This document shows, piece after piece, positions 1-27,342 of a stretch of DNA of 29,240 bases; position 1 is the stretch's first letter, and every line of letters begins with the position of its first letter. The DNA is from a virus. Position numbers and translations under genes: made by a program. The stretch is from the UHGV virus genome UHGV-0275034, one strand, 5' to 3'. The notes under the pieces are model-generated. The model saw only the letters and a program-made list of their open reading frames with translations, was not told the DNA's origin and did not search any database.

Positions 1-20
1 GGACTGAAAGGAGCAAGTGT

Positions 21-311
21 ATGACGGGCAAAGAGGCAATTATTCATTACCTGGGGACGCATAATAGCTTCTGTGCGCCGGACGTTGCCGCGCTAACAGG
101 CGCAACAGTAACCAGCATAAATCAGGCCGCGGCTAAAATGGCACGGGCAGGTCTTCTGGTTATCGAAGGTAAGGTCTGGCGAACGGTGTATTACCGGTTT
201 GCTACCAAGGAAGAACGGGAAGGAAAGATGAGCACGAACCTGATTTTTAAGGAGTGTCGCCAGAGTGCCACGATGAAACGGATATTGGCGGTATATGGAG
301 TTAAAAGATGA
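21..311 (+). CDS. ren: Ren-like protein (lambda ren homologue, 96 aa)
   Basis: ATG at 21 preceded by AAAGGAG; 96-aa product matching my recollection of lambda Ren in length and sequence; sits immediately upstream of the nin region and a tR2-like terminator. Confidence 0.6.
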   Translation: MTGKEAIIHYLGTHNSFCAPDVAALTGATVTSINQAAAKMARAGLLVIEGKVWRTVYYRFATKEEREGKMSTNLIFKECRQSATMKRILAVYGVKR

Positions 312-336
312 CCATCTACATTACTGAGCTAATAAC

Positions 337-369
337 AGGCCTGCTGGTAATCGCAGGCCTTTTTATTTG
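337..369 (+). terminator. Intrinsic terminator (tR2-like) downstream of ren
   Basis: Perfect 8-bp stem AGGCCTGC/GCAGGCCT with 8-nt loop, followed by TTTTTATTT. Confidence 0.7.
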
Positions 370-383
370 GGGGAGGGTAAATC

Positions 384-590
384 GTGGCTGAGTTAATTTT
401 CTCTGCATTGAGGATTCTCGGTGCTATGTGGATGGTGGCGACGTTCATTGTTGTTGCCAGAAGTTTTGTCCGGTTGGTAGGCGAAGGTAAAGACCTGGTA
501 GGTGTGCTTTTCGGTAGCATTTTCCTGTGGGTGATTATCGGTGTTATGCCTGTCGCTGTAGCAAAAATGGCGTGGCGTTTTGTGAGTTGA
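384..590 (+). CDS. Small hydrophobic protein (68 aa, two predicted TM helices), GTG start
   Basis: GTG at 384 with GGAGG about 8 nt upstream; translation is dominated by two hydrophobic stretches; no family recognised. Confidence 0.5.
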   Translation: MAELIFSALRILGAMWMVATFIVVARSFVRLVGEGKDLVGVLFGSIFLWVIIGVMPVAVAKMAWRFVS

Positions 591-607
591 ACTGATGGTA
601 AATATCG

Positions 608-928
608 ATGGACGAATCAAGAAAGCAGTTTGAAGAAAGTTGGTTGCGACGTGGAGGCGAATCCTCAGACCTTATCCGTTACCCTGAAAATCACCATGAA
701 ATTGGCAGTGGTAATATTGGTGGTCAATACGTGATGGACGATGTTCAAGGCCACTGGCAAACGTGGCAGGCATCGCGATCAGCTATTGAAATAACCGCGC
801 CAAAGTTTATCGACAGCAGAGAAGCATTAGCCAAAGGGTTTACTGTTGATTATTCCAATGGCTTCGGTGATGCAATGGATGCTTATGAGGAAAACATCCG
901 CGCTGCTGGAATCAAAGTGAAGGAGTGA
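608..928 (+). CDS. Hypothetical phage protein (106 aa), paralogue of 1386..1742
   Basis: Shares N-terminal MDESRKQFEE, central W-x-W-QASR-x-AIE and C-terminal IRAAGIK motifs with the downstream ORF; the first ~30 nt of both genes are near-identical. Confidence 0.6.
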   Translation: MDESRKQFEESWLRRGGESSDLIRYPENHHEIGSGNIGGQYVMDDVQGHWQTWQASRSAIEITAPKFIDSREALAKGFTVDYSNGFGDAMDAYEENIRAAGIKVKE

Positions 929-1116
929 GCATGAGTCGACGAAGTAGCTTTTTGGGGTTTGTAATATTCCTGTCCTGCACTGGTTACATCGTAATCTGGT
1001 CAATTTCGAACATTGACCGTGGCGGGGAATATCTCATTGTAATGTTCTTTCCTTTGTTTCTTGGGTGGTACGCCGCAAGGTTGCTGGAAGAATGGGGTTA
1101 CAGGCATAAAAAATAA
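925..1116 (+). CDS. Small hydrophobic protein (63 aa, two predicted TM helices)
   Basis: ATG overlaps the upstream stop (ATGA coupling); strongly hydrophobic translation. Confidence 0.5.
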   Translation: MSMSRRSSFLGFVIFLSCTGYIVIWSISNIDRGGEYLIVMFFPLFLGWYAARLLEEWGYRHKK

Positions 1117-1175
1117 AGGAGTGTTCAGTGAAGCAAACCCTTTTTTATTGGATTAAGAGCGAGTGGTAAGTACCG

Positions 1176-1358
1176 ATGGTAAATGCATTTATTTGTAGTT
1201 TATTTCTTGTCGCGATTTTTCATGGATTCCTTCTGATGATGAGTTTTGTTCTCTGGAATAATGGATATCGCATATTGGGAGTAGGTTTTGTTTTACGGTT
1301 TTCAGTTGTCTGCGCGTTGCTACCGATAATTATGGCGACTATCAAATATTATTGGTAA
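1176..1358 (+). CDS. Small hydrophobic protein (60 aa, two predicted TM helices)
   Basis: ORF with hydrophobic translation in an AT-rich stretch; no family recognised. Confidence 0.4.
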   Translation: MVNAFICSLFLVAIFHGFLLMMSFVLWNNGYRILGVGFVLRFSVVCALLPIIMATIKYYW

Positions 1359-1385
1359 CCCAAAAAATCATCGATGGAGAGTGAT

Positions 1386-1742
1386 ATGGACGAATCAAGA
1401 AAGCAGTTTGAGGAATACGTTGCCAAAAAATTGAGATTACCATTCGAGATGATAACCGAGGCAAGAAATGGTGATAGGTACTTCGCATTTTCAAGCATGG
1501 ATATTCGTCACTCCTTAAATGAGTGGTGGACTTTATGGCAGGCATCGCGAGCAGCTATTGAACTGGATATCGACTGGCCAGAATCGAATGACGACTTTTG
1601 GAAAGATGGTGAAGAAGGTGCTTATGCGATGGGTTATGAGGATGGGCGTGACAAAACGGTAATTGCAGTAATGAAAGCTATCAGAGCCGCTGGAATTAAA
1701 GAGAAGAATTTCGATGAAGCAAACAATATTCCTCCGAACTAA
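1386..1742 (+). CDS. Hypothetical phage protein (about 118 aa), paralogue of 608..928
   Basis: Start chosen at ATG 1386 (MDESRKQFEE, GGAG 8 nt upstream) to match the paralogue; the ORF track allows an earlier ATG at 1374. Confidence 0.6.
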   Translation: MDESRKQFEEYVAKKLRLPFEMITEARNGDRYFAFSSMDIRHSLNEWWTLWQASRAAIELDIDWPESNDDFWKDGEEGAYAMGYEDGRDKTVIAVMKAIRAAGIKEKNFDEANNIPPN

Positions 1743-2124
1743 GCAACAACAGCAAGCCGCAATCAACGCCATCCTCGCAACACCACTCGATAAAGACAAG
1801 CCAGTCACCATCCGCATTACTGACTACAAGCGCAACCTTGACCAGAACGCAAAATTTCACGCGATGCTGGCGGATATCGCTCGTCAGGTTCAATGGTGCG
1901 GCAAATGGTTAAAACCAGAACAATGGAAGGTTTTGTTGATCAGCGGTCATGCAGTGGCAACAAAACAGGAAGCTGATGTTTTGCCCGGGCTTGAAGGCGA
2001 ATACGTCAACATTCGCGAAAGCAGCGCGCAGATGAGTGTGAAGCGTATGGCAAGTCTTATCGAGTACACAACAGCCTGGGCTATTGGTCATGGTGTCAGA
2101 TTTACCGACAGGAGGTACGAATGA
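1714..2124 (+). CDS. ninB: NinB (Orf-family recombination mediator)
   Basis: 136-aa product aligns with lambda NinB as I recall it (including a conserved LDQN motif); sits at the head of the nin gene string. Confidence 0.8.
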
Positions 2125-2297
2125 GACGACAGCGACGAAGTATCACCGACATCATCTGCGAAAACTGCAAATACCTTCCAACGAAACGCTCCAGAAATAA
2201 ACGCAAGCCAATCCCAAAAGAATCTGACGTAAAAACCTTCAACTACACGGCTCACCTGTGGGATATCCGGTGGCTAAGACATCGTGCGAGGAAATGA
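2121..2297 (+). CDS. ninE: NinE-family small protein (58 aa; could be labelled NinD in some annotations)
   Basis: Below the ORF-track cutoff; translated by hand as [58 protein letters not shown]; ATG overlaps the ninB stop. Confidence 0.6.
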
Positions 2298-2683
2298 CAA
2301 TGGATTATTCACAGTTAAGTGATTTTGAAATTAACGTGGCGGTATTCGAAGCCATTCATAACGGATCACCGGATTACAAAGAAGGTGAGAATGGCGCGAT
2401 GGTGTTTATCTCATTTGAGGGAGACATTGTAAACGGAGACGCAGTTGAAGTAGAGGTTGAGCGCGGATCCTTTAACCCATGCGCAAACCCAGCAGACGCA
2501 TGGCCGATTATCACTGAAAACAACATCAGCATAATTTTAGACAATCCCTCAATGCCGTGCGCTACAGACAACGCAAGGGACTTGTTTGATGATGCCGGAC
2601 CGAATGTTGGTGTCGCATATGACAATCCACTCCGTGCCGCCATGATTGTCTTTCTCATGATGCAGGACGCCAATAATGCTTAG
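2294..2683 (+). CDS. Hypothetical acidic nin-region protein (about 129 aa)
   Basis: Start set at ATG 2294, which overlaps the NinE stop (ATGA), rather than the upstream in-frame ATG 2258 that lies inside NinE; no family recognised. Confidence 0.5.
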
Positions 2684-2852
2684 CCCATCCCAATCCCTTC
2701 AATACCAGAAAGAAAGCGTCGAGCGGGCTTTAACGTGCGCTAACTGCGGTCAGAAGCTGCATGTGCTGGAAGTTCACGTGTGTGAGCACTGCTGCGCAGA
2801 ACTGATGAGCGATCCGAATAGCTCAATGTACGAGGAAGAAGACGATGAATGA
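2676..2852 (+). CDS. ninF: NinF (58 aa, Cys-rich)
   Basis: Below the ORF-track cutoff; translated by hand as [58 protein letters not shown]; matches my recollection of lambda NinF. Confidence 0.7.
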   Translation: MLSPSQSLQYQKESVERALTCANCGQKLHVLEVHVCEHCCAELMSDPNSSMYEEEDDE

Positions 2853-3567
2853 GTTAATAAATGGCAATGCCATCAAAATGACAAGCATTGAAATCGCTGA
2901 GTTGGTGGGTAAGCGTCATGACAATGTGAAACGTACCATCGAAACGCTGGCTAAGAATGGTGTTATCCGGCTTCCTCAAATTGAGGATTGTGGAAGAATC
3001 AATGGGTTAGGCTTAAATCAAAGTTTTTGTGTGTATGCATTCGAAGGCGAACAAGGAAAGCGAGACAGTATTGTCGTTGTAGCCCAGTTGTCGCCGGAAT
3101 TCACCGCTCGTCTTGTTGACCGTTGGCGAGAGCTTGAAGAAACTGCGGTTAATATCCCCAAAACGCTACCAGAAGCGTTGCGCCTTGCTGCTGATCTTGC
3201 TGAGCAGAAAATGCAACTGGAAAACCAGCTCGCAATTGCCGCACCTAAAGTTGAGTTTGCCGATCGCGTTGGCGAGGCCAGCGGAATTTTGATTGGAAAC
3301 TATGCAAAGGTTGTTGGAATTGGTCCAAACAAACTGTTTGCGTGGATGCGCGATCACAAAATCCTTATTGCTTCAGGTTCCCGGCGCAATGTGCCAATGC
3401 AGGAATATATGGATCGCGGCTATTTCACAGTGAAAGAAACAGCGGTCAACACAAATCACGGAATACAGATATCGTTCACCACAAAAATCACCGGGCGTGG
3501 TCAACAGTGGCTGACCAGAAAGCTGCTCGATAACGGAATGCTGAAAGTAACAGGGGAGGCTGCTTAA
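2845..3567 (+). CDS. Rha-family phage regulatory protein with C-terminal KilA-C/ANT domain (antirepressor-like)
   Basis: N-terminal region has the Rha signature (TSIEIAELVGKRHDNV); C-terminal half resembles the ANT/KilA-C antirepressor domain. Confidence 0.65.
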   Translation: MNELINGNAIKMTSIEIAELVGKRHDNVKRTIETLAKNGVIRLPQIEDCGRINGLGLNQSFCVYAFEGEQGKRDSIVVVAQLSPEFTARLVDRWRELEETAVNIPKTLPEALRLAADLAEQKMQLENQLAIAAPKVEFADRVGEASGILIGNYAKVVGIGPNKLFAWMRDHKILIASGSRRNVPMQEYMDRGYFTVKETAVNTNHGIQISFTTKITGRGQQWLTRKLLDNGMLKVTGEAA

Positions 3568-3857
3568 TGGCTAACCTACGCAAAGAAGCGCGCGGAAGAG
3601 AATGCCAGGTACGTATTTACGGCGTATGCAATGGCAATCCTGAAACCACAGTTCTGGCACATTACCGGATGGCTGGAATTTGCGGAACGGGAATGAAGCC
3701 TGACGACCTGATCGGCGCATGGGCTTGTAGTGACTGCCACGCGGAGATCGACCGACGCACCCGGATTCTCGACAACAAAGACGCCAGACTTTACCACCTC
3801 GAAGGCGTGATCAGGACGCAGGCGATACTGCTGAAGGAGGGGAAGATTAAGTCATGA
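3567..3857 (+). CDS. ybcO: YbcO-like putative nuclease (DUF1364 family)
   Basis: 96-aa product with the Cys/His pattern RGRECQVRIYGVCNGNPETTVLAH ... CSDCHAEIDRR that I recall from DLP12 YbcO; start overlaps the upstream stop (TAATG). Confidence 0.65.
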   Translation: MANLRKEARGRECQVRIYGVCNGNPETTVLAHYRMAGICGTGMKPDDLIGAWACSDCHAEIDRRTRILDNKDARLYHLEGVIRTQAILLKEGKIKS

Positions 3858-4378
3858 ACGGTAAAAGATATCCAACACAAAAAGAAATCAATGAATTGTA
3901 TGAATATAATAGCGAAACAGGTTTGTTTATATACAAGAGAAGAGAAAGTGTAAGAGAGTGCTGGAATTCAACATATGCCGGTAAGATTGCTGGTTCTATA
4001 GATGAAAAAGGATACGTTCGTATATCTGTAAATAAAAAAGTTTGTCGAGCTCATAGAATCGCATGGATATCCTTTTATGGAAGTGAACCTGATGGGGAAA
4101 TTGACCACATAAATGGAGTTAAAAGCGATAACAGAATATGCAATTTGCGCGTTGTAGATGATAAACAGAACTCAAGGAACAGAAAAAAGCCTATTAATAA
4201 TCGCTCTGGAGTAATGGGGGTTGCCTACTATAAGAAGAATAAAAAGTGGGGCGCATATATAAACAGTGATAATAAAAAGATATTTCTTGGATTATACGAT
4301 GACATATCTCTAGCCGTTAATGCCAGAAAATTGGCGGAATCACGATTGGGGTATCACCATAATCATGGGAGAGGATAA
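3854..4378 (+). CDS. HNH homing endonuclease with AP2-type DNA-binding domain
   Basis: HNH motif region (IDHINGVKSDNRICNLR ... NSRN) followed by an AP2-like segment (SGVMGVAYYKKNKKWGAYI); gene is markedly AT-rich relative to its neighbours. Confidence 0.75.
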   Translation: MNGKRYPTQKEINELYEYNSETGLFIYKRRESVRECWNSTYAGKIAGSIDEKGYVRISVNKKVCRAHRIAWISFYGSEPDGEIDHINGVKSDNRICNLRVVDDKQNSRNRKKPINNRSGVMGVAYYKKNKKWGAYINSDNKKIFLGLYDDISLAVNARKLAESRLGYHHNHGRG

Positions 4379-4741
4379 ATGGCAGAATACAGATTCACAC
4401 TTCCGTACCCACCGTCGCTGAACACCTACTGGCGAAGACGGGGAAGCCAATACTACATCAGCGATAAAGGCCAGAAATACCGAAAAGACGTTCAGCAAAT
4501 CATCCGCCAACTTAAGTTAGACATTTTCACCAAATCACGACTCCGCATCAAAGTCATCGCAGACGTTCCAGACTCCCGCCGCCGCGACCTCGACAACATC
4601 CTGAAAGGTTTACTCGACTCCCTTATCCACGCCGGATTTGCGGAAGACGACGAGCAATTCGATGACATTCGCGTAATTCGTGGTGTGAAAGTACCAGGTG
4701 GAAGGCTTGGAATAAAAATCACCGAACTGGAGAACGCATGA
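4379..4741 (+). CDS. rusA: RusA Holliday junction resolvase
   Basis: 120-aa product with the RusA pattern (LPYPPSLNTYW ... RRRDLDN ... GGRL) as I recall it from E. coli RusA. Confidence 0.85.
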   Translation: MAEYRFTLPYPPSLNTYWRRRGSQYYISDKGQKYRKDVQQIIRQLKLDIFTKSRLRIKVIADVPDSRRRDLDNILKGLLDSLIHAGFAEDDEQFDDIRVIRGVKVPGGRLGIKITELENA

Positions 4742-4926
4742 ACGCCACAATTCAAACGATACCAGAGCTTCTTATCCAGACACGAGGCAATCAGACCGAA
4801 GTGGCAAGGATGCTTTCCTGCGCAAGAGGAACAGTGCTCAAGTACAACCGAGACAGCAAAGGCGAGCGTCATGTAATAGTTAACGGCGTCCTGATGGTCA
4901 AACAGGGCAAGAGGGGAAGACGATGA
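4738..4926 (+). CDS. ninH: NinH
   Basis: 62-aa product containing GNQTEVARML-C-RGTV, as in lambda NinH; start overlaps the rusA stop. Confidence 0.75.
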   Translation: MNATIQTIPELLIQTRGNQTEVARMLSCARGTVLKYNRDSKGERHVIVNGVLMVKQGKRGRR

Positions 4927-5411
4927 GCATAAGAGAACTAAACCTCACCAAAGAGCAGCACGATTGGCTGAATGGCTGGCTTGAACTGTGGGGAGCATGG
5001 GTTTATTCAGGTCGTCTTGAAAAGCGCATGAGCAGCGTAATAGCGAAGTTCATGGAGAGCGTAGAGCCGGGAAGAGTTATGACAAGGCCAATGTGCAATG
5101 ATGATGATGGAATGTTGATTTCTCAGGTCGTCGATTCCGTCATGTACATTGACAAGAAAGCCTTTGGCATCCTCCTCAGCTACTACGCTCATGGATCTTC
5201 CAAGCACGCCATTGCATCTTACTATCATCGTGTCGCAAGACCTCGCAAGATGTTATGCCGTGGCGGCGGGCGCATTCAAAAACCATCGCTCGCAACCTGT
5301 CGCCGGGAAGTTGACGAAATCCTCAATGCCTCGTTGTTTATGATTTATCCGGTTCTGGATAGTGCGTTTAAAAACCGGAAACGTGTAGATAAAATTAAAC
5401 ATGTAGCATAG
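4923..5411 (+). CDS. Q: Late-gene antiterminator Q (non-lambda Q type, 162 aa)
   Basis: Position directly after ninH and before the lysis genes; translation resembles the Q antiterminator family found in 21/82-like lambdoid phages and DLP12 QuuD. Confidence 0.7.
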   Translation: MSIRELNLTKEQHDWLNGWLELWGAWVYSGRLEKRMSSVIAKFMESVEPGRVMTRPMCNDDDGMLISQVVDSVMYIDKKAFGILLSYYAHGSSKHAIASYYHRVARPRKMLCRGGGRIQKPSLATCRREVDEILNASLFMIYPVLDSAFKNRKRVDKIKHVA

Positions 5412-5417
5412 AACGTG

Positions 5418-5446
5418 TTGACATCATTGAGCAAATGAGCAACACT
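5418..5446 (+). promoter_or_regulatory. Candidate late promoter pR' (-35 TTGACA at 5418..5423; weak -10 about 17 bp downstream)
   Basis: Consensus -35 hexamer immediately after the Q stop, where lambdoid late promoters sit; the -10 hexamer is poor (AACACT), so the call is tentative. Confidence 0.35.
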
Positions 5447-5454
5447 ATTCGCAT

Positions 5455-5503
5455 AAGCTGCCGTTAGTGACTCTTAAGTTGCAACGGTGGCTTTTTTTGT
5501 TTG
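5455..5503 (+). terminator. Candidate tR'-like intrinsic terminator
   Basis: Imperfect roughly 10-bp stem (AGCTGCCGTT / AACGGTGGCT, two G-U pairs) followed by TTTTTTTGTTTG. Confidence 0.45.
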
Positions 5504-5522
5504 CACAACAGGTAAGAGCATT
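5504..5522. repeat. 19-bp direct repeat CACAACAGGTAAGAGCATT, copy 1
   Basis: Exact 19/19 match to 5755..5773; the same motif follows tR' in phage lambda as I recall. Confidence 0.8.
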
Positions 5523-5754
5523 CTCCCTTATGGGGCTTGGCTTAAATGCACCGAGTGCTCTTATCGTTGTGGCAGCACAACGATAGTTTTCGTCAGAGTT
5601 GGCGACTTTGCGGTTTTTTAGAAACTGACCACAAAGATAAATGCAAACGATGATGTTGTTCTGATGGCGGCGTAATAGCCTGTAAGTCAGCAAGGTCTTC
5701 CGACTCCTTGTAAACAAATTCGGCGCACTGGCCCGGTGTGATTAATAATGGGCA

Positions 5755-5773
5755 CACAACAGGTAAGAGCATT
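5755..5773. repeat. 19-bp direct repeat CACAACAGGTAAGAGCATT, copy 2
   Basis: Exact match to 5504..5522; the two copies bracket about 232 bp with no convincing ORF. Confidence 0.8.
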
Positions 5774-6285
5774 GCGCGCCTGACGAGCCCATGAGGGACG
5801 AAACGCATTAGCGTCGTGCGGAGTATCCCCAGCCGGGGAATAACTGGATACCAGGGGAGACAACCCTAAGCGCATTTACGAGTGTGTTTAGGGCGTGGGT
5901 CGGCAATGACTCCCTGTGCAGCCGACATCTGGCCCGGCAACATACAGTGCTCCTTCCGTTGTGCTGAATTAAGCGAATACCGGAAGCAGAATCGGGTCAA
6001 CAAATGCGTACAGGCGTCATCGCCTCCCAGTAACAGCACACCCAAACTGAGCCGTAGCCACTGGCTATCCTGAACTCATCAGTGATAGTTACGCTGCGGC
6101 CTTCTATACATGACCTTCGTGAAAGCGGGTGGCAAGAGGCTGCGCTAACAACCTCCTGCCGTTTTGCCCGTGCATATCGGTCACGAACAAATCTGATTAC
6201 TAAACACAGTAGCCTGGATTTGTTCTATCAGTAATCGACCTTATTCCTAATTAAATAGAGCAAATCCCCTTATTGGGGGTAAGAC

Positions 6286-6609
6286 ATGAAGATGCCAGAA
6301 AAACATGACCTGTTAGCCGCCATTCTCGCGGCAAAGGAACAAGGCATCGGGGCAATCCTTGCGTTTGCAATGGCGTACCTTCGCGGCAGATATAATGGCG
6401 GTGCGTTTACAAAAACAGTAATCGACGCAACGATGTGCGCCATTATCGCCTGGTTCATTCGTGACCTTCTCGACTTCGCCGGACTAAGTAGCAATCTCGC
6501 TTATATAACGAGCGTGTTCATCGGCTACATCGGTACTGACTCGATTGGTTCGCTTATCAAACGCTTCGCTGCTAAAAAAGCCGGAGTAGAAGATGGTGGA
6601 AATCAATAA
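6286..6609 (+). CDS. S: Holin, lambda S type (dual start M1-K2-M3 giving antiholin S107 and holin S105)
   Basis: 107-aa product that matches lambda S as I remember it, including the MKM dual-start motif; the upstream sdi region also looks lambda-like. Confidence 0.9.
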
Positions 6610-22902: not shown

Positions 22903-22926
22903 AACCCACCGTCAGGTGGGTTTTTT
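22903..22926. terminator. Bidirectional hairpin terminator overlapping the mnt stop codon
   Basis: Stem AACCCACC/GGTGGGTT with loop GTCA, flanked by AAAAATT on one side and TTTTTTG on the other. Confidence 0.6.
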
Positions 22927-23163
22927 GTACAAATCCTTCAGCGTATCAAACACCATCTTCTTAACAAGTTCGGACTGCTCATCAGCGATGCGTTCCGCAT
23001 CGTCTCGATAGCCTGAAATTTTGGATGGCTTTGATACAGCATCAGTAACTATCTGAACTAATTCTGAATTAAGAGAGCGGCCATTGGATTTGGCTCGCTG
23101 TTTTAGTTTTTCCTTTAATTCGTAAGGTAGCCGCAGATTAAATTGCGGGTCATCTCTTCCCAT
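22912..23163 (-). CDS. mnt: Mnt repressor (ribbon-helix-helix, immI region)
   Basis: 83-aa product that matches P22 Mnt as I recall it, especially the C-terminal GYRDDAERIADEQSELVKKMVFDTLKDLYKK. Confidence 0.85.
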   Translation of the reverse strand: MGRDDPQFNLRLPYELKEKLKQRAKSNGRSLNSELVQIVTDAVSKPSKISGYRDDAERIADEQSELVKKMVFDTLKDLYKKPT

Positions 23164-23226: not shown

Positions 23227-23241
23227 AGACCACAGTGGTCT
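23227..23241. promoter_or_regulatory. Candidate Mnt operator: perfect 15-bp palindrome AGACCACAGTGGTCT
   Basis: Perfect inverted repeat in the mnt-tailspike intergenic region; its CCAC-N-GTGG core resembles the P22 mnt operator as I recall it. Confidence 0.55.
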
Positions 23242-23309: not shown

Positions 23310-24746
23310 ATGACAGACATTACAGCCAATGTTGTAGTCAGCATGCCTTCGCAACTCTTCACTATGGCTCGTTCTTTTAAAGCCGTAGCTAATGGAAAGA
23401 TTTATATCGGTAAAATTGACACTGACCCAGTAAATCCTGAAAACCAGATTCAGGTTTATGTAGAGAACGAAGACGGCTCTCATGTTCCCGTTTCGCAACC
23501 AATCATCATTAACGCCGCTGGTTACCCTGTATATAACGGACAGATTGCCAAATTCGTAACTGAGCAAGGCCATTCTATGGCTGTTTATGATGCGTATGGT
23601 GCACAGCAGTTCAAATTCCCAAATGTGCTGAAGTATGACCCGGATCAGTTAAGAGTAGTTTTGACTGGACAGTCTGGTGATGGACTTAAGAATTTTTATG
23701 CTGGCTCAGGATGGACTGGTTCAGATGCAGCTGGTGACAATATTTATAACAATGAAACTATCATATATAAAAATGCTACACGACAGAGATTCTCCATACC
23801 AGAAACACCAATTCCAGATCCCATTATTTGGCTGGAAAAAATTAGTTCTGCAACTAGGGATGACGGCATCAAACGATGGGATCAGGGGGTAATTTATAAC
23901 TCTTTGCGCAAGGTGTCAGGAAGTGCATATACATGCACAACTACAAGTGTTGCTAAGCATGAGGGAGGGAATGGGCATTCAATTGGTCACCACATGCGTG
24001 GAGAATCAAGAAATCCGCAAGCCGAAACATGGGGGGGGTGGTCATATGGTGCAGTATTAGGAGATGCAGTGCAGAATGGAGCGATTAGCACTATTGCACA
24101 TGAATTTAATCTGAATAATCGAGGTCCCGATAAAGGATGGATGGAGAATGCACTGCAAGGATCTGTAAGAGGGTTGGTATGTGTAACTCAGGATAAAAGC
24201 AATCCAGTAACACAGATGATTACCATCGGAAGAGGGAGTGAAGCTCCAAATGGTTATATCTGGACAGGAATGTTGTTTAGAGGTAATTCTATTTCCACTC
24301 CAACAGAGGAACTAACCGAGGTAGGTAATGGCGAATACATCAGACTTGAGGGATCTCTATCATCTGGAGCTGCAAACGGCATTAGATTTAGAACAAATTA
24401 TTTTAGGAGTGGAATTTCATTTTCTGAAGCTAGATTTTCAAACAACTGCGCAATTTTGATGGGCGACAATCAACGAATTACGGTAGGAACGGGCCCGGCA
24501 AATACAACACATTTGAGTTTCAACAGGGCTGAGAACTGGGCTAACTTCAACAACTTAAGAATACGACTTAATGGCAATCAAGTTATTTCAGAGAGGAGGA
24601 CGGGATGGGGATCGCCAACCGGCACCGTATCCCGAGCAGCATTTAACTCTGGAACAATAACTCACGAAGATTTAGCAAAGGTAGTTGCAGCATTAATTCA
24701 GGACTTACATGCTTCAACCGGGCATGGATTAATTGGTTTAACTTAA
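23310..24746 (+). CDS. Tailspike / receptor-binding protein (P22 gp9-like N-terminal head-binding domain, divergent short distal domain)
   Basis: First roughly 115 aa closely parallel the P22 gp9 N-terminus ([11 protein letters not shown] ... [13 protein letters not shown][13 protein letters not shown] ... LKYDPDQ); the remainder is unrelated and AT-richer; total 478 aa. Confidence 0.8.
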
Positions 24747-24758
24747 CAGGACAATAAA

Positions 24759-24944
24759 ATGGATAAGCAAACTATTCAAAATATCATGCAGTTTATGCTT
24801 CGCGTAAATCTTAGCGGTCATGAAGTTCCTGCTTTTAATTCTTCAATGAATGCATTACAGGCTGAATTAGATCGCGAAAATGACCAGCCACTCCAGCGAG
24901 TACTAAATGCTGCTCACAATGAACCTGTTACGGAGAATGATTAA
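24759..24944 (+). CDS. Small hypothetical protein (61 aa) downstream of tailspike
   Basis: ORF with a weak RBS, tightly linked to the next small gene. Confidence 0.4.
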   Translation: MDKQTIQNIMQFMLRVNLSGHEVPAFNSSMNALQAELDRENDQPLQRVLNAAHNEPVTEND

Positions 24945-24945
24945 A

Positions 24946-25152
24946 ATGAAAACAGAAAGCGGTGCTTTCAAATTTGACGGTGGAGAGGTTAAAGGAATTA
25001 ACAGCATTGCCATTATTGAGGTGCGCGGTAACGGGTGGGGCGCTGGTTTTTATTTTAAGCCAAATACTGCCGTTAAAGTCGATGGTAATAAGCCTGATCT
25101 GAACGAGTTTCGTGATTCCTGCGCATTGTCGGTAATGACTCCAACTTACTGA
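24946..25152 (+). CDS. Small hypothetical protein (68 aa) downstream of tailspike
   Basis: ATG 24946 with GGAGA 9 nt upstream; begins 2 nt after the stop of the preceding small ORF. Confidence 0.45.
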
Positions 25153-25307
25153 TAGTGTTTTATATTCAGATAATGCCCGATGACTTTGTCATGCAGCTCC
25201 ACCGATTTTGAGAACGACAGCGACTTCCGTCCCAGCCGTGCACCAGGCTGGTTCAGAATCATGTTCTGCTGATTTTGTCCGGCGGCAGAACGCAATTTGC
25301 CAGAGTG

Positions 25308-25433
25308 ATGGGAAGGGCATTAATCACGGATGATGGTGAAGCGATCGAAGTGGAGGCGGCGGAAGAGGTGGAGGTGATGTGGCGTGTTACGTACTTCATC
25401 AACAGCGCGCTGCAGGATGGCGTGGTGGTGTGA
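25308..25433 (+). pseudogene. Coding-like fragment resembling the 3' end of a protein gene (41 codons from an internal ATG)
   Basis: Open frame ending ...VMWRVTYFINSALQDGVVV*, with no plausible full-length gene upstream (in-frame stop at 25209); a degenerate second copy lies at 25532..25678. Confidence 0.25.
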
Positions 25434-25688
25434 TGGGTGGCATTACCCCACCTTTTCATCAATCCAGTCCGCCCACCACTGCAGCATGTCTCTGCATTTA
25501 TCGTAGTTGATGCATCACTATCACCCTGTAATGGCTTATTACTGGTTTGCATACAGGTAGGCATGAACAGATACCTACACATGAAGATGGAACTAGTCCG
25601 GATGCGATATTTTTGGTGATCACGTACATCATCAACGAAGCGCGTTATGTTGAGTTTTATGACTGCCAAGTAATGTGAAAATTGCGAT

Positions 25689-25712
25689 GCGTACCAAATT
25701 GTGTACCAAATT
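25689..25712. repeat. Tandem arm-type repeats GCGTACCAAATT / GTGTACCAAATT (putative integrase arm sites)
   Basis: Two adjacent 12-bp copies; three more related copies lie at 25939..25985, just upstream of int. Confidence 0.6.
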
Positions 25713-25938
25713 AAAATCATAAACCATGAAACCCTTACTCATGGCTGTTCTCAGGCTGGGTGCGTGTAATCGTGAAAGAGGAAGGTAGGTTGTTTATCTG
25801 TGTCTGTCATTGTCTAGCATTGTCCACTGTAGTTAATTAACTGTCTGTTATAACTCGAAAAACAACCATTTTTTCACCTGAGTATGTCTACGAACGTCAA
25901 ATATAGTTGTTTACTGTGCGCTGTTGTCCATGTGATAT

Positions 25939-25991: not shown

Positions 25992-27170
25992 ATGGCTATA
26001 AGCGACACAAAACTGCGTACTATTTATGGTAAACCATATTCGGGCCCACAAGAAGTGGCTGATGCCGATGGCCTCAGCGTACGAATTTCACCGAAGGGGG
26101 TCATCCAGTTCCAGTACCGCTATCGCTGGCATGGCAAGCCTAATCGACTTGGGCTTGGTCGATACCCATCCCTGTCTTTGAAGGATGCCAGACAGATCAC
26201 TGCTGACTTGCGAAAGCTCTATTTCTCAGGAACGGATCCACGCACCTATTTTGAAGAGAAGGTGGAGAACTCCATGACGGTCGCCCAGTGTCTCGACTAC
26301 TGGTTCGACAACTACGTCTCTACAACTCTCAGAGAAAAGACCCAGGCACTTTACCGATCAACGGTTATGAAGCGCATGCATGACGCCTTTCCTAATCGTC
26401 CGGCATCTTCTATCACGGTTAAGCAATGGGTTGACCTGCTTACCGAAGAAGAAAGAGATAATCCACGCCGAGCAAGGCAGGTGCTAAGTCAACTAAGATC
26501 AGCAATAAGTTGGTGCATGCGGCGTCAGTTGATAGATAGTTGCGCAATTATGAGCATCCAACCAAGGGACTTCGGCTCCCGCGCTGAGGTAGGGGATCGG
26601 GTACTGTCGTATCACGAACTGGCTAAGATTTGGCTTGCTATTGAAAGAAGCCGTGCGTCTACGTCAAATAAGCTCCTTCATCAGATGCTTATGCTGTGGG
26701 GGGCGAGGCTCTCAGAGCTTAGGCTGGCAACAAAGACAGAATTTGACCTGCTGGACAACGTATGGACCGTACCGAAAGAGCATAGCAAGATGGGTAATGT
26801 TATCCGCCGTCCAATCTTCGAACAAATTAAGCCTTTTCTCGAAAAAGCCATGACAACGTACAATGATGTTCTTTTCCCTGGAGAAGACATAAACAAACCG
26901 ATCAGCATCGCTGCAGCCAACCGATTCGTAAATAGAATAAGGGGAGGGATGGATCTGGGTTACTGGCGAACACATGATTTCAGAAGAACGCTTGTTACAC
27001 GTCTGTCCGAGATGAATGTCGAGCCTCATGTTACTGAGCGAATGCTCGGTCATGAACTTGGCGGGATAATGTCAGTATACAATAAACACGACTGGATAGA
27101 GGCTCAGCGCAAAGCGTATGAGCTTCACGCTGATAAATTGTTCTGGCACATCAGGAGCATTTCTGATTAA
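25992..27170 (+). CDS. int: Tyrosine site-specific integrase (P4-type)
   Basis: 392-aa product with catalytic-domain signatures (RLSELRL, HDFRRT, LGHELGG ... SVYNKH); lies adjacent to the arm-type repeats. Confidence 0.9.
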   Translation: MAISDTKLRTIYGKPYSGPQEVADADGLSVRISPKGVIQFQYRYRWHGKPNRLGLGRYPSLSLKDARQITADLRKLYFSGTDPRTYFEEKVENSMTVAQCLDYWFDNYVSTTLREKTQALYRSTVMKRMHDAFPNRPASSITVKQWVDLLTEEERDNPRRARQVLSQLRSAISWCMRRQLIDSCAIMSIQPRDFGSRAEVGDRVLSYHELAKIWLAIERSRASTSNKLLHQMLMLWGARLSELRLATKTEFDLLDNVWTVPKEHSKMGNVIRRPIFEQIKPFLEKAMTTYNDVLFPGEDINKPISIAAANRFVNRIRGGMDLGYWRTHDFRRTLVTRLSEMNVEPHVTERMLGHELGGIMSVYNKHDWIEAQRKAYELHADKLFWHIRSISD

Positions 27171-27342
27171 CGCCACCGTTAAGAATCCACCCTTCAACAG
27201 CTTCACGAAGGTATGATTTGGGGTGGGTTCTGACTGGCTTCGGAAATCCGTGTCGTTTGGTATAGTTCCAGATTGTCTGACGTGATGAAACACCGAGCTT
27301 GTTCATCACTTCTTTCTCAGGAATCAGGCTGGTATCGGTCAT
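27151..27342 (-). CDS. AlpA-family excisionase / DNA-binding protein
   Basis: 63-aa product with the AlpA-like HTH pattern (LGVSSRQTIWNYTKRHGFPKPV); GGAGA 6 nt upstream; 3' end overlaps the int 3' end by 20 bp, convergently. Confidence 0.7.
   Translation of the reverse strand: MTDTSLIPEKEVMNKLGVSSRQTIWNYTKRHGFPKPVRTHPKSYLREAVEGWILNGGVNQKCS

Follow-up and report, generated by a model that had tools for sequence, protein, structure and literature searches.

Our analysis centred on the gene at positions 2845-3567 of UHGV-0275034, a virus genome of 29,240 nucleotides that was analysed over its whole length and is referred to below as the window. The P22-like podoviruses HK620, Sf6, Gally, N7 and CUS-3 match this 29-kb window at 94-97% in the late genes and in parts of the nin region, and the order of genes, read 5' to 3', is a ren-like gene, the nin region, Q, the lysis genes, the head and ejection genes, a remnant of the immI region, a tailspike gene, an integrase gene and the start of the early-left region. 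The open reading frame (ORF) at 2845-3567, on the plus strand, starts with ATG and encodes 240 amino acids (aa). Sequence comparison identifies it as roi, one of the usual delayed-early genes of lambdoid nin regions, long known and widespread, and its presence here is hence an ordinary finding. The following features were recognised in the gene:

2845..3567, plus strand: roi coding sequence, 240 aa, from the ORF list, the identity to HK620 and HK022 Roi, and the Pfam families Phage_pRha and ANT/KilAC
2875..3090, plus strand: N-terminal Rha-type winged helix-turn-helix (HTH) domain, residues 11-82
2917-2955: predicted recognition helix, residues 25-37
2902..3042, plus strand: polymorphic patch separating roi alleles, residues ~20-66, from nucleotide identity and protein conservation
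2974..2986, unstranded: perfect 13-bp palindrome CCTCAAATTGAGG, covering codons P44, Q, I and E47 plus 1 nt, a candidate Roi operator
2997..3009, plus strand: IHF core AATCAATGGGTTA (consensus WATCAANNNNTTR), 10 bp downstream of the palindrome
3094..3276, plus strand: helical linker, residues 84-144, including one long helix at 108-144, from the AlphaFold2 model
3220..3528, plus strand: ANT/KilAC domain, residues 126-228, nearly invariant among roi alleles, from Pfam and the conservation profile

The identification as roi follows from full-length orthology to HK620 and HK022 Roi (95% and 87% identity, respectively, across the 240 aa), combined with occupation of the same slot between ninF and ybcO or ninG. 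A nucleotide search with positions 2600-3900 matched 390 phage records, and the labels given to the gene were roi, 'DNA-binding protein Roi' or, in RefSeq re-annotations, 'anti-repressor'. The order ninF-roi-HkbD-rus-ninH-Q is common to HK620 and HK022, and roi has the same annotated neighbours in the records of HK97, N7 and CUS-3. VT2-Sakai also has roi at the corresponding place, where an ant gene stands in for ninF upstream and ninG follows downstream; in Stx phages, an ant gene lies directly upstream of roi and ninG comes after it. Most of 80 related IMG/VR loci show the order ninB-ninE-(ninX)-ninF-roi-(ybcO-rusA or ninG)-ninH-Q, and roi-like DNA was present in 1069 of 5426 complete E. coli genomes (~20%). 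The window gene has the location typical of Roi, in the nin operon between the replication gene P and Q. Vibrio phage ICP1 and Salmonella phages of the FSL SP-101 and S102 type encode full-length homologues with ~30% identity; ICP1 and the FSL SP-101-type phages we take to be virulent and to lack a repressor.

The initial annotation had proposed an antirepressor-family gene with Rha and KilA-C domains in the nin region, and the location and, with a marginal score for Rha, the domains were borne out. Pfam detected ANT/KilAC (PF03374) at residues 126-228 (E=1.8e-32; 112.3 bits against a cutoff of 25.3) and, as a marginal pass, Phage_pRha (PF09669) at residues 12-99 (33.6 bits against a cutoff of 29.9), and the gene is flanked by ninF upstream and ybcO downstream. 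The stricter NCBIfam Rha model (TIGR02681) was not reached by Roi (17.3 bits vs 45.95), and PHROG 63, 'anti-repressor Ant', matched with E=2.4e-95. An AlphaFold2 model built on a 59-sequence alignment drawn from a representative-protein search reached a mean confidence score (pLDDT) of 91.4, against 37.8 for an unusable single-sequence model, and contains two helix-turn-helix-plus-hairpin units. The N-terminal unit comprises a strand (11-13), helices 14-21 and 25-37, a hairpin (45-52/58-67) and helix 68-82, a predicted winged HTH fold that would be consistent with Rha. Helices 84-101 and 108-144, the latter long, make up the middle of the model, and the C-terminal unit consists of helices 150-157 and 161-170, a hairpin (194-203/206-215) and helix 217-229. 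A sequence search of the PDB with Roi gave no match at E up to 1, and a Foldseek search of the PDB with the model gave nothing at E up to 0.001.

Variation among roi alleles is strongly localised. At codons ~20-66 the gene shares 50-60% of its nucleotides with HK620 and HK022, compared with 90-100% elsewhere. The 115 Roi proteins with 83-94% identity to the query differ mainly in the patch of residues ~20-66, of which there are at least 5-6 types. The recognition-helix and wing patch of the window differs from that of HK022 and HK620 Roi and represents a rarer allele, present in 3 of the 115 proteins, whereas the KilAC half is nearly invariant among them. Roi is a two-domain protein in which a long helical linker joins an allele-polymorphic, Rha-type winged HTH domain to a nearly invariant KilAC domain.

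The 13-bp palindrome lies within the code for the polymorphic patch. Its register was defined by anchoring each allele 19 codons after the near-invariant His25, in a set of 48 distinct alleles with protein identities down to ~42%. An in-register palindrome is complete (6/6 pairs) in 31 of the 48 alleles and has five of six pairs in 9 more, and at least seven distinct perfect palindromes were found: CCTCAAATTGAGG, CCTCAATTTGAGG, CCTGCATTGCAGG, CCTGCAATGCAGG, CCCCCAATGGGGG, CCACCATTGGTGG and CCGCCACTGGCGG. At the third, synonymous position of the Pro codon all four bases occur, in every case complementary to the second base of codon 47. Paired cells amounted to 88.2%, against 68.9% in shuffles (0/500), in the ungapped alignment (A4), and the covariation score of the palindrome was 0.47 against 0.16 in shuffles (0/500). 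Double changes were seen in five of the six palindrome pairs, and a control in which the partner was slid gave only 31-46% pairing.

This covariation could in principle reflect either a DNA site or an RNA structure. The innermost A-T pair, which is impossible in an RNA hairpin, is retained in most alleles, and although a hairpin forms in the minimum-energy fold of the region, its energy is unexceptional (z = -0.57). Because of these two observations, a dyad site in duplex DNA is the better reading of the palindrome, and an RNA hairpin the less likely one. Across alleles, the class of palindrome tracks the sequence of the recognition helix, as follows:

helix KRHDNVKRTIE.L: palindrome CCTCAAWTTGAGG
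helix SR[PH].NVK[IV]SI[ED]RL: palindrome CCTGCAWTGCAG
helix SRHDKVKQSIERL: palindrome CCCCCAATGG[GT]GG
helix SRHDSVKRTVERL: palindrome CCACCATTGGTGG
helix SRHDDVKRSIERL: palindrome CCGCCACTGGCGG

The palindrome class of the window equals that of HK620 and differs from that of HK022, whose palindrome in the same register has five of six pairs (CCTGCATTGCAGC), against six of six in the window. Further copies in the window were no better than 2-3 mismatches and occurred at chance frequency, and no good copy was found in the early region of HK620 from int to P, which belongs to the same palindrome class. From its sequence properties, the 13-bp palindrome is probably the operator of Roi itself.

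The IHF core beside the palindrome is also conserved in position. The consensus has three matches in the window, one of which, at 2997-3009, lies within roi. The core occupies the same codons (x-I-N-x-L) in HK620, HK022, N7, VT2-Sakai and P22 rha, and it was present in register in 9 of 9 divergent alleles of the INxLG type, P22 rha included. Across nine divergent alleles the 13-mer of the core is 89% identical, compared with 52% for its 45-nt flanks; its Ile, Asn and Leu codons are invariably ATC, AAT and TTA, and the next codon, for Gly, varies. Alleles with a different wing do not have the core.

Two further observations concern sites within the gene. A second perfect 13-bp palindrome, ATGGCAATGCCAT, is located at 2861-2873 (roi codons 6-10) and is conserved in close alleles; the N-termini are identical there, so that covariation is uninformative for or against a function. 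Alleles of the type represented by L057, L058 and L060 (wing ENKQTISPNKF, helix SQHGNVRISIERL) have a palindrome of only three of six pairs and no IHF core, together with a C-terminal half like that of other alleles. This type may be a natural variant free of the cis site, useful as a control.

The surroundings of roi bear on how it could be expressed. The features of the operon are as follows:

21-311: ren-like gene
337..360, plus strand: tR2-like intrinsic terminator upstream of the nin genes, from a terminator scan, at the position of the annotated tR2 of HK620
1714-2124: ninB
2121-2297: ninE
2258-2683: ninX
2676..2852, plus strand: ninF, the upstream neighbour of roi (Pfam NinF, PHROG 672)
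3567..3857, plus strand: ybcO/DUF1364 (HkbD), the downstream neighbour of roi (Pfam YbcO, E=7.6e-44)
3854-4378, plus strand: HNH_3 ORF (Pfam HNH_3, PHROG 99)
4379-4741: rusA
4738-4926: ninH
4923-5411: Q

The stop of ninF and the start of roi overlap by 8 nt (ATGAATGA), and the stop of roi and the start of ybcO by 1 nt (TAATG). In a search for a promoter or terminator belonging to roi, counts of consensus matches across positions 1-6400 were at or below those of shuffled sequence, and no strong-scoring site stood beside the gene. A repeat search at default settings in and around roi returned short, chance-level matches only, and a tRNA scan of the window found none. The gene is packed between ninF and ybcO, after a tR2-like terminator, and has no promoter, terminator or operator of its own.

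Experimental background is available for HK022, to whose Roi the window protein is similar in full-length identity, in gene slot and in the position of the IHF core within the gene. In the 1996 work of Clerget and Boccard, roi is reportedly the reason why lytic growth of HK022 requires IHF. Roi is said there to be a helix-turn-helix DNA-binding protein with its binding site inside roi itself, in close linkage to an IHF site, and IHF reportedly stabilises the complex of Roi with DNA. The C-terminal half of Roi is also said to resemble P1 Ant1 and KilA. The combination of a palindrome and an IHF site within roi of the window would presumably be the same arrangement. The HK022 work is cited in two later papers (PMC3430580, PMC4587872), and the literature searched yielded no functional follow-up on Roi.

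The explanation that best accounts for these observations, and that we consider probable, is that roi is a gene of the PR operon whose product binds as a dimer, together with IHF, to the palindrome inside the gene and so limits Roi synthesis. Transcription of roi would start at PR only after derepression and would pass the tR2-like terminator at 337-360 under N antitermination. Roi dimers would then bind the palindrome at 2974-2986, next to the IHF site at 2997-3009, and IHF would bend the adjacent DNA and stabilise the Roi complex. By blocking RNA polymerase, the Roi-IHF complex would most likely limit the synthesis of Roi and possibly read-through towards Q. Where IHF is absent, unrestrained Roi would inhibit lytic growth through its conserved KilAC half.

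Several points weigh against this explanation. The autoregulation and the roadblock are steps that we infer, the palindrome is a binding site predicted from sequence, and its equation with the published Roi site is presumptive. The correlation between helix and palindrome could be plain linkage, as the two are ~20 nt apart, in which case palindromy alone would be independent evidence. The IHF core encodes a conserved I-N-x-L-G motif, and protein constraint contributes to its conservation. An RNA hairpin of 5-6 bp would also fit most of the covariation, and some alleles (L057, L058) have neither the palindrome nor the IHF core.

More tentatively, the comparison among alleles may be extended to the family as a whole. 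Each roi allele could carry a dyad operator within the code for its own DNA-binding domain, matched to its own recognition helix and, in enteric alleles, accompanied by an IHF site; roi would then be a self-contained, allele-specific cassette for autoregulation or self-recognition, mobile between phages as a unit, that doses a conserved KilAC effector. We regard this generalisation as a reasonable possibility that still falls somewhat short of an even chance. No description of a family-wide co-variation of helix and palindrome was found in the literature searched.

A related arrangement is seen in rha. The Rha proteins of phi80 and P22 have the same Pfam N-terminal domain as Roi, but the C-terminal domain of P22 Rha is ORF11CD3 instead of KilAC, its gene follows the lysis genes, outside the nin region, and lacks a 13-bp palindrome at the corresponding register. 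The IHF core of P22 rha (AATCAATAACTTA, 39834-39846), in codons for I-N-N-L, is identical to that of several roi alleles, and a run of P22 rha (GAAAAAATCAATAACTTAGG) is identical to VT2-Sakai roi, even though the proteins align weakly. In the 1995 work of Henthorn and Friedman, Rha of phi80 and P22 is said to inhibit phage growth in IHF-deficient hosts, the same phenotype as for Roi. Since phage growth reportedly depends on IHF through both genes, these matches suggest that roi and rha have a common cis element. The P1 record likewise annotates a predicted IHF binding site within the ant1 coding sequence, at the start of Ant2 (3946-3958), making ant1 another gene of the KilAC family with an internal IHF site.

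Could Roi instead act as an antirepressor of the P1 type? Its KilAC half would then bind the repressor of its own phage or of a co-resident prophage (P1-like C1 or lambdoid CI), leading to lytic lock-in or cross-induction. Databases give the family the name 'antirepressor', and residues 103-234 of Roi are 66% identical to the C-terminus of P1 Ant1 (132 residues), a protein that, according to the P1 record, antagonises C1 with Ant2 by complex formation. Trans-acting antirepressors that coordinate prophage induction are described for Salmonella (PMC3121763), and the P22_AR_C-type ant immediately upstream of roi in Stx phages promotes efficient induction (PMC3064807). However, a study of the Listeria protein AriS notes that what the ANT/KilAC domain does exactly is not yet clear (PMC9043618). 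Pfam finds the domain in Roi, P1 Ant1 and P1 KilA alike, and because KilA, to whose C-terminus the same segment of Roi is 68% identical, is annotated as host-killing and is not described as an antirepressor, the domain is not diagnostic of antirepression. The N-terminal part of Ant1 is missing from Roi, and roi is expressed only downstream of PR and tR2, when the phage's own repressor has already gone. The full-length homologues in ICP1 and FSL SP-101-type phages, presumably virulent and repressor-less, also argue against such a role. All experimental work on Roi known to us concerns a DNA-binding protein whose phenotype is linked to IHF, and not an antirepressor. Taken with these objections, a P1-type antirepressor is unlikely.

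The known proteins that share a domain or a label with Roi differ from it in architecture and control. P1 Ant1 has an N-terminal part unrelated to that of Roi and no Rha domain, and P1 ant is controlled by the C4 antisense RNA and by coupling to icd, whereas roi is a member of the PR operon without regulation of its own. P1 KilA has an N-terminal KilA-N domain in place of Rha and its own C1-controlled promoter. P22 Ant and the nin-region Ant of Stx phages (phi24B, VT2-Sakai) have the label 'antirepressor' in common with Roi, but consist of P22_AR_N or ORF6N with P22_AR_C, and belong to another fold and family.

AriS itself suggests a different function, in which Roi would be a dual regulator whose N-terminal domain acts on phage genes and whose KilAC domain weakens the SOS response of the host, probably via RecA, thereby tuning the induction of cohabiting prophages. 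For AriS of Listeria phage phi10403S, the ANT/KilAC domain by itself is enough to block lysis and the induction of SOS genes, and pRha with KilAC, exactly the architecture of Roi with its C-terminal KilAC, is listed as one of three AriS-like architectures (AntA/B, Bro-N, pRha) (PMC9043618). AriS itself has an AntA/AntB N-terminal domain and originates from Firmicutes, and the effect was demonstrated in Listeria only, where it was not seen at native expression levels (PMC9043618). A role of this kind would leave the dependence on IHF and the palindrome within the gene unexplained, and we consider it improbable.

Still less probable, with only a very slight chance of being correct, is that Roi is a phage-exclusion or defence protein to which the DNA site in its gene confers self-immunity. 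HK022 Roi can reportedly block lytic growth in IHF-deficient hosts, and a polymorphic N-terminal patch would be expected of a specificity determinant. A cis site within the gene that is specific to the allele is also reminiscent of BstA and aba (PMC8585504). What BstA has, however, is a KilA-N-like domain, with no report of either KilAC or Rha, and the resemblance is therefore no more than an analogy (PMC8585504). Roi matched no family among the PADLOC-DB defence models at E up to 0.01, and roi has no promoter for expression from the prophage. Its homologues in ICP1 and FSL SP-101-type phages, which we take to be virulent, likewise do not fit.

The remaining proposal, that of the initial annotation, was that roi is the P22 immI antirepressor relocated to the nin region in place of a deleted ant. 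The features of the immI region are:

22912..23163, minus strand: mnt, 83 aa, the sole remaining immI gene (Pfam Arc and Repressor_Mnt; 76% identical to P22 Mnt)
23227..23241, unstranded: Mnt-operator-like palindrome AGACCACAGTGGTCT, between mnt and the tailspike gene, aligning with the P22 mnt operator region
23310..24746, plus strand: tailspike gene, starting where P22 has arc-ant (Pfam Head_binding, residues 1-113)

The canonical position of ant next to mnt is indeed empty, as had been proposed: a spacer of 146 bp separates mnt from the tailspike gene, which starts at 23310, and tblastn searches of the 29 kb with P22 Ant, N7 Ant, VT2 Ant, Arc and SieA found no ant, arc or sieA. Of the P22 immI module (mnt-arc-sar-ant), the window retains mnt and one operator-like palindrome. 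A link between this vacancy and roi did not hold up. P22 Ant consists of Pfam P22_AR_N and P22_AR_C, without Rha or KilAC, and neither P22_AR domain was found in Roi by Pfam. Alignment of the 59-sequence Roi family with the P22 Ant family by hhalign gave a probability of 0.27%. Pairwise BLAST gave only a chance-level match of 37 residues, and a weak BLAST similarity between P22_AR_C and residues 137-169 of Roi was rejected as homology on the hhalign result. An Mnt-like operator, which had been suggested as a feature to look for upstream of roi, was not found near the gene; with up to three mismatches, its only occurrence in the window is at 23227-23241.

Comparison with other phages separates the two loci as well. 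In the P22-like coliphage N7, a ninF-roi-ybcO block with 95% nucleotide identity stands beside a complete immI, in which an mnt-like gene, arc and ant (69.5% identical to P22 Ant) precede the tailspike gene, and the Stx1a_10051 phage carries both roi and ant. HK022 and HK97 are siphoviruses without immI, yet they have roi in the same slot. The junction of mnt with the tailspike gene is identical in Gally, the same arrangement occurs in ST160 and SE1 matches the same stretch, while HK620 keeps only remnants of mnt and ant. In a study of phage L, the interval from gene 16 to gene 9 is described as very variable, and an mnt-like remnant without arc or ant is reported (PMC8022706). The missing arc-ant is a separate and recurrent deletion state of P22-like phages, and the presence of roi is independent of an immI ant. 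Although arc and ant are missing beside mnt and Roi bears an 'antirepressor' family name, relocation of the P22 ant is refuted at the sequence level, and is the least credible of the proposals, because Roi is an orthologue of known Roi proteins with no detectable homology to P22 Ant, roi coexists with ant in N7 and occupies its slot in immI-less phages without an Mnt operator nearby, and the mnt-only junction recurs.

The immI remnant has some features of its own. The half-sites of the palindrome at 23227-23241 differ from those of P22 (GACCAC vs GTCCAC). With arc, sar and ant deleted, whatever promoter remains there faces the tailspike gene, and in the lysogen Mnt may now keep the tailspike gene repressed, or it may act on its own synthesis alone. 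The tailspike protein is only 478 aa long, and beyond the P22-type head-binding domain (residues 1-113), the remaining ~365 residues have no Pfam match; nucleotide matches to known phages end near 23650. Three small ORFs without family matches follow the tailspike gene, at 24759-24944, 24907-25152 and 25259-25720 (minus strand). The region 23310-25720 may be a novel receptor-binding module.

Elsewhere in the window, the HNH_3 ORF at 3854-4378 (+), which encodes 174 aa and lies between ybcO and rusA, two genes downstream of roi, looks like an insertion of the homing-endonuclease type: ybcO directly abuts rusA in HK620, HK022 and N7, and an HNH_3 homologue is absent from this position in all 80 related IMG/VR loci. 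Two nin-region ORFs (608-928 and 1374-1742, plus strand) match PHROG 343 and are an apparent paralogous pair with two small unassigned ORFs between them. The integrase (392 aa, plus strand, in the region 25992-27342) is oriented opposite to int of P22 and HK620, and an excisionase-like ORF (PHROG 66; 63 aa, minus strand) overlaps its 3' end. The same int module is found in phage E212, mEp234 and Stx phages.

As an answer to the question originally posed, the significance of the gene is small, since roi is long known and widespread and an ant-less immI is common in P22-like phages. The label 'anti-repressor Ant' on Roi-type proteins stems from the name of the KilAC domain and not from demonstrated antirepression, and the lesson for annotation is that such a label does not make a Roi-type gene a substitute for P22 Ant. 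Of modest value is the observation that a palindrome within coding sequence, preserved through compensating synonymous changes, varies in step with the recognition helix. It leads to a model of Roi and Rha control, and of IHF-dependent phage growth, that would be cheap to test, and the roi alleles could serve, in studies of winged-helix specificity, as naturally matched pairs of protein and operator.

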